Shown here in pieces: positions 1-3,000 of a stretch of 4,548 bases of DNA. How positions within the stretch are numbered: the stretch's first letter is position 1; the number at the start of each line of letters is the position of its first letter. The stretch comes from a virus (lineage: Duplodnaviria > Heunggongvirae > Uroviricota > Caudoviricetes), in IMG/VR virus record IMGVR_UViG_2703718824_000007, positions 1 to 4,548 of that record; one strand, given 5' to 3'. The position numbers are program-made.

Positions 1-3000
1 CCGCACACTCGCGCAGAGGAGTCTCCCTGTCGGGCTGCGGTCTCTGTTAATACGGGAATACGGCGACAATACCGCGCCATGGATAATAAGGTCGCTCAAC
101 ACACTGGCTGTAATGCAGCGGATACCATGCGGCATTTAGCGGCATTCATCGTACACTCAACGGTTAGCTCTTCATTCGTGGCATTCACCTGAAAGGTCCG
201 GGAGTGTAATTGCGTACATTTACCACTGAACGAACCTTCAACAAGAACACGACCACGCTGCAAAATACGGAACGGAATTGTTCCCTGAAAAGGTTCTACG
301 GTTACCCGTAATTTCTTCATGTATCCTCCGGATAATAAAAAGCCAGCTTAGTGCACTGAGTGCGTATATATTCCTGCGCCCCTTCCAGCTGCTTCTGCAT
401 TGTCATCAACCGTTCTCTGAGGTTGAAATAATCCCGTTCAGCGGTGTCTGCCAGTCGGGGGCCGGTTGCATTATCCACGCCGGAGGTGCCGGTGGCTTCA
501 CGCACGGTACCGGTGCAGGTGGCGTTGATCCGCAGGCGCTTACGACCAGCGGCAATATCAGCACGCAGAGTTTCATTTTCAGCTCTCGCATCGGCTAATT
601 CCCTCGAGTATTTTGCATCGAGCGCAGCAACATCACGCTGGCGCACCTGCATGTCAGTAATGGTGGCATTCGCCTGTTCCAGCTCTCTGGCTTTTTTATC
701 GCGCTGCGCTTTGTAGGTGATGGCGTTATCGCGGTAATGATTCAGCCCCAGACTAAGCGCACCACAGACCACCAGCAGAATAACAGTAAACGCGGAAAGA
801 ATTCGGTTTATGCTCACCATGCCCCCTGTCAGAAATTGCAGATTATCAGCTCGCTGACACTGCTTGTCTTACCACGTGGTACAGTATAACGATGAGCAAC
901 ATGATGAATATTCATCCCCTCAAACAATCGTCTCATTTCCTGCGAATCGTTCAGGGATATAATCATTTTGCCTTTTATTGTGCGGGCAAGTTCTGCCATG
1001 CGCTCATAATTGCAGAATGAAAAATCAATGCCGTAACCACCATCCAACCAATACGGAGGATCGCAGTAAAACAGCGTTGTCGGGCGGTCATACCGTGCGA
1101 TACAGACCTCCCAGTCAAGGTGTTCAATAGTTGCCCGCGCCAGCCGATCACGGGCTTCCTGCAATAACTGCTCTGTATTCCCGGGGATTATCTGCGGTCT
1201 GTGAGTTTTAACTCCAAATGCCCGACTGTATGCTCTTCCGCCATACGCGCACTTCTGGATAAAAAAGAAACGGACAGCCCGCTGGATATCCGTCATGTAC
1301 TCCGTGTGCTGATTTATCACCTCATTCCACATCTCACGACTGGCGAGCATCCACTGAAACTGGCGGGAAAATTCCTCCTGGTGGTACTTCACCACACGGT
1401 AGAGATTAACGATATCACTGTTTATATCGTTGATGATTTCAGCGCAGCTCGGTTTTTTCATAAAGAACAGTGCCGCACCGCCACAGAACGGTTCCACATA
1501 CAGAGTGTGCTCAGGAAATAACGGCAGAATATGTTTTGCCAGACGACGCTTCCCTCCTAACCACGGGAGAAACGGTTTTGCAGAGTTATTATTCATTTCA
1601 CCACCAGCGGATTTCCCGGATTAGAACCGCAATTGCCACAATGCGAATGGCAAATGCCGTTGCCCGAATAAATTCAGTACTCATCTGTTTAAATAAATTG
1701 TCGTCATCAGTCACTGTCACCCCACCAGCCCTGCCGAAGTCAACGCCATCCAGGCTATGGAAAGAAAAAGAGCAACCATCATTAGCGAAAATGAAACGCC
1801 GACAATCACACAGATGGTCTTCGCCAGCGTTATGAGTTTGCCTGATATCATTAGACGCCACTCCATCAATCCGTCTTTGTGATTTTTCCTTTGCCTGTAT
1901 CAGCCAGGACAAAACCAATCAGCAGATTCGCTTCGTTTATCAACGTGCGAATTTTTGATACATGCGCGGCTTTAACCAGTTTCCATTCGTTTAACCCTGT
2001 ACCAAACAGACTGGCAATGTTTTTATCCCGTTTCATGTCAGCGCATGCCTGGTTGAGTTCTTCCATCACGCTCATTTGACGAGGATTAACGACAAAACCC
2101 TTCGTCCAGTATTCATAGAGAACATCGTCGCACTCTTCCTGATACTGGATAACCTTGTCGCGGATTCCGGGTTTTACTTTGTTGGGATTGATGGTTTGTA
2201 ACCAGCCTGCAAGTTTTCGAAGTGGCAGGGACACCATATTGCGTCGTTTCCCGTCCTCAGCAACCATAACGATTTCCGTTATAGTTGACGCAAAACGCTG
2301 TCTTAACTTAGCCAACTGTGATTGCCAGGCCAGCCCCATCCCCGCAACGACAGGTTTCATGGGAACGTATGGTTCGCCGTTATGGTTAACCACATAAAGA
2401 GAATCGCCGTGAAACGGCACGGTTATCATATTCATCGGTTATTTCCTTTTAGTGATGAACCCTGCGCACAGGAATAACCAGCCCAAAGAGGGTTAACCAG
2501 ACCACTGCCGGTTATCCACCAGGGCTCATCCTGAAAGGTTCTTTGGTTTATTTACGCTTGTGCGAAGCGCAGAAATGACAAAGGCACCATTACGGTGCCT
2601 CTGCGTGAAATAATGATCCTGACTTTATTCACTTACATTTTGCCAGTTCGCAGGATTTCGTGTTATCCGTCCGCGTTGGCCAACGTCATTTTTCAGCAAA
2701 ATATTCTGCTTATCTGTCGATACCCCAGCATGCCAGCGCACTCTCCTGGTCGCGACGGGATACCTGACCGTAGCAATTATTTGAGCGAATACGGCAGTCT
2801 CTGCCACCGTCCTTAATCCACCAGCGAATCGCTTCGCAGGCACCTTTTCGATCGCCTGCATTAATTCGTTTATAAAACGTCGACGTGAAACACTTACCGG
2901 GGCCAATGTTGTAAGGACAGAATGACGCAATTCCCGCTTTCTGGGGTTCAGTCAGTGGCACTTTGATGTTTTTCTCCACCCATGCCAGCGCCTTATCACG

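Follow-up and report, generated by a model that had tools for sequence, protein, structure and literature searches.

We analysed a stretch of DNA of 4,548 nucleotides (hereafter the window), which covers positions 1 to 4,548 of the IMG/VR virus record IMGVR_UViG_2703718824_000007 (Caudoviricetes). The window is the late (lysis) region of a lambdoid prophage resembling Shiga toxin (Stx) phages, and its real genes lie on the minus strand throughout. The subject of this work is a small open reading frame (ORF) of 74 amino acids, which follows the spanin gene Rz and is very probably a real accessory gene of the late operon. The features at this end of the window are given below.

1-77: conserved non-coding flank of the slot that holds the ORF, 62 % GC
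78-352: presence/absence cassette of 275 bp with 45.8 % GC, comprising the ORF, its ribosome-binding site and the last Rz codons
96-320, minus strand: 74-amino-acid ORF with stop codon TGA at 96-98; PHROG 2571, RefSeq hypothetical protein WP_000736383.1
317-320, minus strand: ATGA, formed by the ORF start (320-318) and the Rz stop TGA (319-317), in the close clade only
324-329, minus strand: Shine-Dalgarno site GGAGG(A) (GGAGG = 329-325), within the last Rz codons, 4 nt 5′ of the ATG
344-346, minus strand: CTG codon in Rz, at the place of the Rz stop TAG in relatives (comparison with loci L091, L093, L085 and L095)
317-820, minus strand: Rz i-spanin (PF03245), on the same late transcript, upstream of the 74-amino-acid ORF
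406-591, minus strand: Rz1 o-spanin lipoprotein (PF06085), inside Rz in the +1 frame

The ORF product has a mass of 8.3 kDa and an isoelectric point of 9.5. Its N-terminus reads MKKLRVTVEPFQGTIPFR, and the four cysteines are C35, C56, C62 and C74, the first of them being at position 35. The coordinates, the translation and the four cysteines reported in a preliminary description of this DNA were all confirmed in the sequence. The ATG at 320-318 is the only possible start, because an in-frame TAA lies at 348-350 and no start codon is found between the two. The Shine-Dalgarno site GGAGGA, said earlier to be encoded in the last Rz codons, is indeed present at 329-324, though its spacing of just 4 nt to the ATG is short. 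We found no export signal or hydrophobic segment in the product (maximum Kyte-Doolittle value of 0.8 in a 15-residue window), as the preliminary description had also stated. The length of the ORF is unremarkable by itself: the window contains 16 ORFs of at least 74 amino acids, several of which are plainly spurious antisense frames, whereas mononucleotide shuffles contain approximately 6. The case for a gene therefore rests on the comparison with relatives.

For this comparison, 95 related loci were collected by protein similarity from viral contigs and assemblies, and the reading frame is intact in every one of them; conservation in related prophages had been named earlier as a point to be checked. 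The differences among seven alleles fall on codon positions 1, 2 and 3 in numbers of 271, 223 and 466, which is a third-position excess. The ratio of non-synonymous to synonymous substitution rates (dN/dS, Nei-Gojobori) ranges from 0.13 to 0.49 in 34 of the 35 informative pairs. Within the close clade, we counted 9 synonymous polymorphisms over approximately 53 sites and 8 non-synonymous ones over approximately 169 sites, giving a ratio of non-synonymous to synonymous polymorphism (pN/pS) of about 0.28. By these measures of substitution, purifying selection acts on the ORF. When 5.8 billion proteins were searched, 49 relatives were recovered, all from Escherichia coli or Salmonella, with 53-100 % identity. 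Almost all the full-length ones are 69-76 amino acids long, and this length is retained even at 53-64 % identity, Salmonella included.

A frame on the plus strand is open from base 1 of the window to a TGA at 190-192, as described before. In the closest genome (L001), this frame meets a stop two codons before window base 1, and in-frame stops interrupt it in the relatives L089, L091 and L093. Its possible homology to a known protein was checked, and no PHROG or NCBIfam match was obtained. The stop codons in relatives rule out a plus-strand gene, so the earlier preference for the minus-strand ORF was well placed. With its frame intact in 95 of 95 loci, its purifying selection and a confident predicted fold (see below), the minus-strand ORF is, as far as comparative evidence can tell, the genuine protein-coding gene that it had been taken for.

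The ORF product matches the profile of PHROG 2571 with an E-value of 2.7e-28, its residues 1-73 aligning to profile positions 100-172. The profile is 291 positions long, probably because it includes longer proteins in which the domain is fused to unrelated sequence (P0081, P0090, P0093 and P0094). A profile search of 1.84 billion representative proteins resulted in 47 hits, among which relatives of 72-82 amino acids with 26-40 % identity align from end to end and show the same alternation of strands. Four repeat proteins from this search (P0089, P0110, P0114 and P0117) were judged to be spurious low-complexity or repeat matches. The remote relatives also match PHROG 2571 (E-values from 1e-15 to 1e-19), all tested members fall into this family, and gp60 of phage mEp237 (YP_007111433.1) matches the family profile at 2.5e-27. 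A second search with a wider alignment added members in Klebsiella, Providencia, Yersinia and Xenorhabdus, all of them annotated as hypothetical and none with a Pfam domain. Scanning genome contigs with a profile of the close alignment gave no confirmed locus.

Searches of other resources were negative. No family was found for the ORF in Pfam (E-values up to 0.1) or NCBIfam, PADLOC models gave 0 families at E-values up to 1, the PDB sequence profile search returned only a chance-level match (E-value of 0.64), and we found no publication on the protein in the literature. The earlier statement that the ORF cannot be placed in any family is thus valid for Pfam, NCBIfam and PADLOC, but the protein belongs to PHROG 2571 and has a RefSeq entry, WP_000736383.1. 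The ORF is already catalogued, as a PHROG of unknown function and as a RefSeq hypothetical protein, and is a modest lead and not a surprise.

AlphaFold2 modelling from an alignment of 15 sequences gave a mean local confidence (pLDDT) of 89.5 and a predicted template modelling score (pTM) of 0.75, with seven strands and one short helix. The product is predicted to be an all-beta protein in the form of a seven-strand beta-sandwich. The best-kept residues of the family are K2, V6, F17, Q21, G33-K34, Y43, V45 and A68. The four cysteines, to which the preliminary description drew attention, are present in the ORF but are not a family feature: C35 and C56 are the only ones conserved in the Escherichia/Salmonella branch, and none of the four is conserved across the wider family. 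A role of the cysteines as a metal-binding or disulfide motif of the family was dismissed, as remote members lack these cysteines.

The preliminary description placed the ORF at the position where lambda carries bor, and the comparison of loci agrees with it. In one related prophage (L083), only 20 bp stand in place of window positions 78-352 and the ORF is missing, while the flanks are 89-97 % identical. In a DLP12-like prophage (L084), the same segment is replaced by 525 bp with a convergent iss/bor gene, and in the Sakai prophage Sp5 bor comes directly after Rz/Rz1. The bor/iss gene is on the strand opposite to the late genes in L084 and L098. The empty site in L083 and the bor/iss gene in L084 identify window positions 78-352 as a 275-bp cassette which alternates with bor or with nothing. 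Its GC content of 45.8 % differs from that of Rz (54.5 %) and of the downstream flank (62.3 %), and the GC content at third codon positions is 42.7 % versus 55.4 %.

The flank at positions 1-77 is kept whatever the slot holds, be it the ORF, bor/iss or nothing. A structured RNA or a terminator in this flank was considered and dropped, because the whole window has no Rfam match (E-values up to 1) and the RNA fold of positions 1-100 is no better than that of shuffled sequences. Of 5,426 complete E. coli genomes, approximately 3,990 show a match within window positions 1-330, and approximately 1,180 hold at least 80 % of these positions. Among the matches listed, the partial ones comprise only segment 1-77, with 85-97 % identity. 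The ORF was also found in 26 records of the phage collection, mostly Stx2c-converting phages together with some Stx2a and Stx1a phages and H-19B.

Other genes occur in the same region. A gene for a hairpin protein of the Acb2/Tad1 type, a sponge family with anti-CBASS and anti-Thoeris activity, sits in the same slot between the spanin gene and the terminase gene Nu1 in four loci (L099 5314-5598, L100 3316-3597, L133 1362-1646 and L180 4816-5097), and such a gene was once found directly downstream of a PHROG 2571 gene. These genes show the kind of cargo that the slot accepts, but the loci are too few to assign a function. In prophages of the O157/O55 type (L089 4557-4898 and 16 similar loci), the gene next after the ORF encodes a small TonB_C-domain lipoprotein, and beyond it lie an oppositely oriented DUF3950 gene, an HNH gene and a Terminase_2 gene, which make up another set of optional genes in the region.

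The ATGA overlap of the ORF start with the Rz stop, put forward earlier as a sign of co-translation, is present at 317-320 of the window. It was found in 83 of the 95 loci, all within a single clade of 95-100 % identity, and is therefore specific for this clade and missing from more distant relatives. In L085, L091, L093 and L095, Rz ends at a TAG located 24 nt 5′ of the ORF ATG. The window has CTG in place of this TAG (344-346), as a result of which its Rz is 9 codons longer and the ATGA overlap is created. Through the loss of the stop, the periplasmic C-terminus of Rz, with which the protein meets Rz1, is extended by the nine residues LAFYYPEDT. L087 and L096 have their functional Rz approximately 440 nt upstream, and what precedes the ORF is only a decayed 3′ end of Rz. 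The Shine-Dalgarno site is kept as GGAGG, GGGGG or AGGAG in all eight homologous loci that we inspected. Across the loci, the ORF keeps its strand, its Shine-Dalgarno site and a short distance to the gene before it.

Regarding transcription, a crude consensus scan found no promoter-like site from the start of Rz to the ORF, the interior of Rz included. A credible terminator was not found on either side of the ORF: the only two candidates are weak 5-bp stems within the ORF itself, and the RNA fold of the region downstream of the ORF is no better than that of shuffles (z of 0.71). As the ORF shares the strand of the late genes, starts 0-24 nt after Rz and, as far as the scan shows, lacks both a promoter and a terminator of its own, we infer that it is read from the late transcript. 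Its expression would then be late, too, as far as gene order can indicate.

In the Salmonella locus L085 and in the remote relatives L103-L105, the family gene is followed by a gene of approximately 70 amino acids with the motif GWVLGW...PWHLVGVYAT, which belongs to PHROG 4280. We know of no function for PHROG 4280, and the only hint from Pfam is a weak match to DUF7457 (E-value of 0.0017). Examples of this partner gene are:

L085, 4265-4471: PHROG 4280 gene
L164, 2575-2787: PHROG 4280 gene
L183 (phage mEp237), 3501-3722: PHROG 4280 gene

When viral contigs were searched with the PHROG 4280 partner as query, 76 loci were recovered, and in 57 of them a member of PHROG 2571 lies directly upstream on the same strand with a gap of approximately 40-75 bp. 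In the cultured lambdoid phage mEp237, the pair is formed by gp60 and gp61, located between an Rz-like spanin and the right end of the genome. PHROG 4280 is also found in Pseudomonas phages, where it has no PHROG 2571 neighbour. Few E. coli genomes (15) have the full pair, whereas the solo form is common in this species. L087 and L095 contain a truncated or interrupted partner, and the window has none. Judged by this distribution, the window ORF is the surviving first half of a two-gene module widespread in phages of Enterobacterales. The solo gene is still under purifying selection, which argues that it can work without the partner.

The closest genome match of the window is the E. coli chromosome L001, with 98.7 % identity over positions 1-900. 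There the ORF is annotated as hypothetical protein WP_000736383.1, and a Nu1-type small terminase gene follows approximately 490 bp further on. The remaining genes of the window are:

829-1596, minus strand: D12 Dam methylase
1717-1869, minus strand: 50-amino-acid membrane ORF (PHROG 4906)
1866-2435, minus strand: antirepressor-like gene (P22_AR_N and ORF11CD3)
2710-3243, minus strand: lysozyme with an N-terminal segment resembling a signal-arrest-release (SAR) sequence
3280-3837, minus strand: 185-amino-acid protein between holin and endolysin (PHROG 1085, function unknown; no Pfam family)
3841-4056, minus strand: S21-type holin

The lysis cassette is split at 829-2435, where the antirepressor-like gene, the 50-amino-acid membrane ORF and the Dam methylase stand between the endolysin and Rz. 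The methylase gene is intact in the window and frameshifted in L001. The first approximately 50 residues of the 185-amino-acid ORF (3280-3837) reappear at the C-terminus of P0081, a protein of 181 amino acids which starts with a PHROG 2571 domain. The shared segment suggests that recombination may have taken place between these two accessory genes.

The context of the family varies. Its members follow three kinds of spanin, namely PF03245, DUF2514 (PHROG 312) and a third Rz-like pair with no assigned family (L122), and they precede three types of terminase genes (Nu1, Terminase_2 with HNH, and DUF1441). Other positions are between Q and the holin in L101, behind tail genes in L146 and next to lom/BamE-like genes in L102. 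Such a varied context and the presence/absence polymorphism are more easily reconciled with optional cargo than with a core function in lysis or packaging.

Considering all this, the best explanation overall, towards which we lean somewhat, is that the ORF encodes an optional cytoplasmic accessory protein made from the late transcript and housed in the bor slot. The low-GC cassette at 78-352 is optional cargo in a variable slot that extends from the spanin to the packaging genes of lambdoid prophages. The ORF would be read from the Q-antiterminated late transcript, would hence not be expressed before the late stage of lytic growth, and would be translated via its own Shine-Dalgarno site and, in the close clade, also by re-initiation at the ATGA overlap with Rz. 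In phages of Enterobacterales, the family gene usually comes first in a two-gene module with PHROG 4280 second, and the window copy is a solo one which has lost the partner. The product is presumed to be non-essential and cytoplasmic.

As to what the protein does, our proposal is tentative. Late in infection, it may bind to and act on some component of the host or the phage, for example in counter-defence or host modulation, instead of being part of the lysis machinery. In a more specific and rather doubtful version, PHROG 2571, alone or together with PHROG 4280 (e.g. gp60-gp61 of mEp237), would found a family of late counter-defence proteins with a miniature beta-sandwich fold. Such proteins would neutralise a host abortive-infection sensor or effector triggered by packaging, capsid assembly or lysis, and the slot would be an anti-defence hotspot which also houses Acb2.

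Several observations weigh against the reading as optional late cargo or against its extension to counter-defence. The crude consensus scan could miss a promoter active in lysogens, and the sampling of the 95 loci by protein similarity may under-sample decayed copies. Between the window and L089, there are 18 non-synonymous and 3 synonymous changes, a deviation which is not significant (Fisher p = 0.42), and positive selection between the two was dropped for this reason. The Acb2-like neighbour was found in just 4 of 182 loci; this makes the link to counter-defence weak, and the co-localisation was not used as functional evidence. PADLOC gave no match for the ORF, either. Finally, the steady position after spanin genes and the coupling to Rz could point to a role in lysis.

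That role leads to the main rival explanation, which we regard as unlikely. The ORF product would be an accessory lysis factor tuning the timing or completeness of lysis, e.g. via the pinholin, the SAR endolysin or the cytoplasmic end of Rz. Beside its place in the lysis region, however, one has to consider that closely related lysis cassettes work without the ORF, since the slot is empty in L083 and taken by bor in Sp5 and DLP12. Spanins act in the envelope, but the product lacks both a membrane segment and a signal peptide, and family members are also encoded upstream of the holin in L101, behind tail genes in L146 and next to lom-like genes in L102. A structural match to XepA, a protein from a Bacillus prophage lysis module, is no better than dozens of generic beta-sandwich matches.

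We find it more improbable that the ORF is a lysogenic-conversion gene, i.e. a classic moron like bor, which is expressed from the resting prophage and benefits the host. It shares the slot of bor/iss, and its presence/absence polymorphism and distinct lower GC content are hallmarks of morons. However, promoter-like or terminator-like signals flanking the ORF were not found, and the ORF is co-directional with the late operon and located 0-24 nt from Rz, hence it should be silent in a repressed prophage. Moreover, it lacks the export signal of bor, lom and other surface-acting conversion factors.

The product might also be a lectin-like protein which is freed at lysis and acts outside the cell, e.g. 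on surface sugars or cell debris, in the way that Stx or NanS-p, other cargo from the late region of Stx phages, act after release. This is very unlikely, as the structural matches are weak and generic (none in Foldseek with an E-value below 0.05) and the wider family does not conserve the cysteines. We identified no sugar-binding motif, and a real carbohydrate-binding module is about twice as large as the 74-amino-acid product. Hardly credible is the idea that there is no gene at all, the frame being open by chance in conserved DNA or the plus-strand frame 1-192 being the real gene: chance ORFs of such length are common in the window and the plus-strand frame is open up to the window edge, but the substitutions show a coding pattern in the minus-strand frame, relatives with 26-40 % identity retain the protein length and the strand pattern, and the plus-strand frame has stops in L001, L089, L091 and L093 and no PHROG or NCBIfam match.

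By position, the nearest parallel of the ORF is bor/iss. Bor is an exported lipoprotein of approximately 97 amino acids, encoded convergently to the late operon and expressed in lysogens. Both genes are optional cargo in the same slot, which directly follows Rz/Rz1 and is bounded, towards the packaging genes, by the conserved flank. In contrast to bor/iss, the ORF is co-directional with holin, endolysin and Rz, its product has no lipoprotein signal peptide or lipobox cysteine, and a promoter of its own was not found. No sequence match to the Bor family was obtained for the ORF in Pfam (E-values up to 0.1) or NCBIfam. With the morons of lambdoid phages, reportedly defined by Hendrix and colleagues, the cassette has in common that it is present or absent at the same site in near-identical phages and that its base composition differs from the flanks. 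It differs from them in that the crude scan found no promoter and terminator of its own and that the ORF seems to rely on the late transcript.

Acb2/Tad1 proteins are likewise small, optional phage proteins of the late region, encoded in the same spanin-to-terminase slot in four related loci, but the ORF has no PF24729 match and its predicted all-beta sandwich is unlike their helical hairpin. The product differs also from the Rz/Rz1 spanins, having no N-terminal membrane anchor or lipobox, and PHROG 2571 is its only PHROG match, none being to a spanin. Among the beta-sandwich proteins XepA and YomS from Bacillus prophage lysis modules, XepA is a chain of 276 residues; it has been described as exported and has two domains. 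These proteins share no sequence similarity with the ORF. The only direct affiliation is PHROG 2571 itself, for which we found neither a described function nor a solved structure, nor any model in Pfam or NCBIfam.

The ORF is ordinary in kind, but it is common, clinically associated and now defined enough for testing. Roughly one in five complete E. coli genomes has the gene, and it is found in many Shiga-toxin phages (Stx2c, some Stx2a and Stx1a, and H-19B). What was an anonymous hypothetical protein becomes a defined target for a knock-out, being a real gene with a predicted fold, interchangeable with bor and half of a widespread two-gene module. Should its loss have no phenotype, it would be one more optional cargo gene of lambdoid phages. 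Should it turn out to act in counter-defence or in lysis timing, the repertoire of such factors would gain a new small fold, and the slot between spanin and terminase genes would be a place to seek more such genes.

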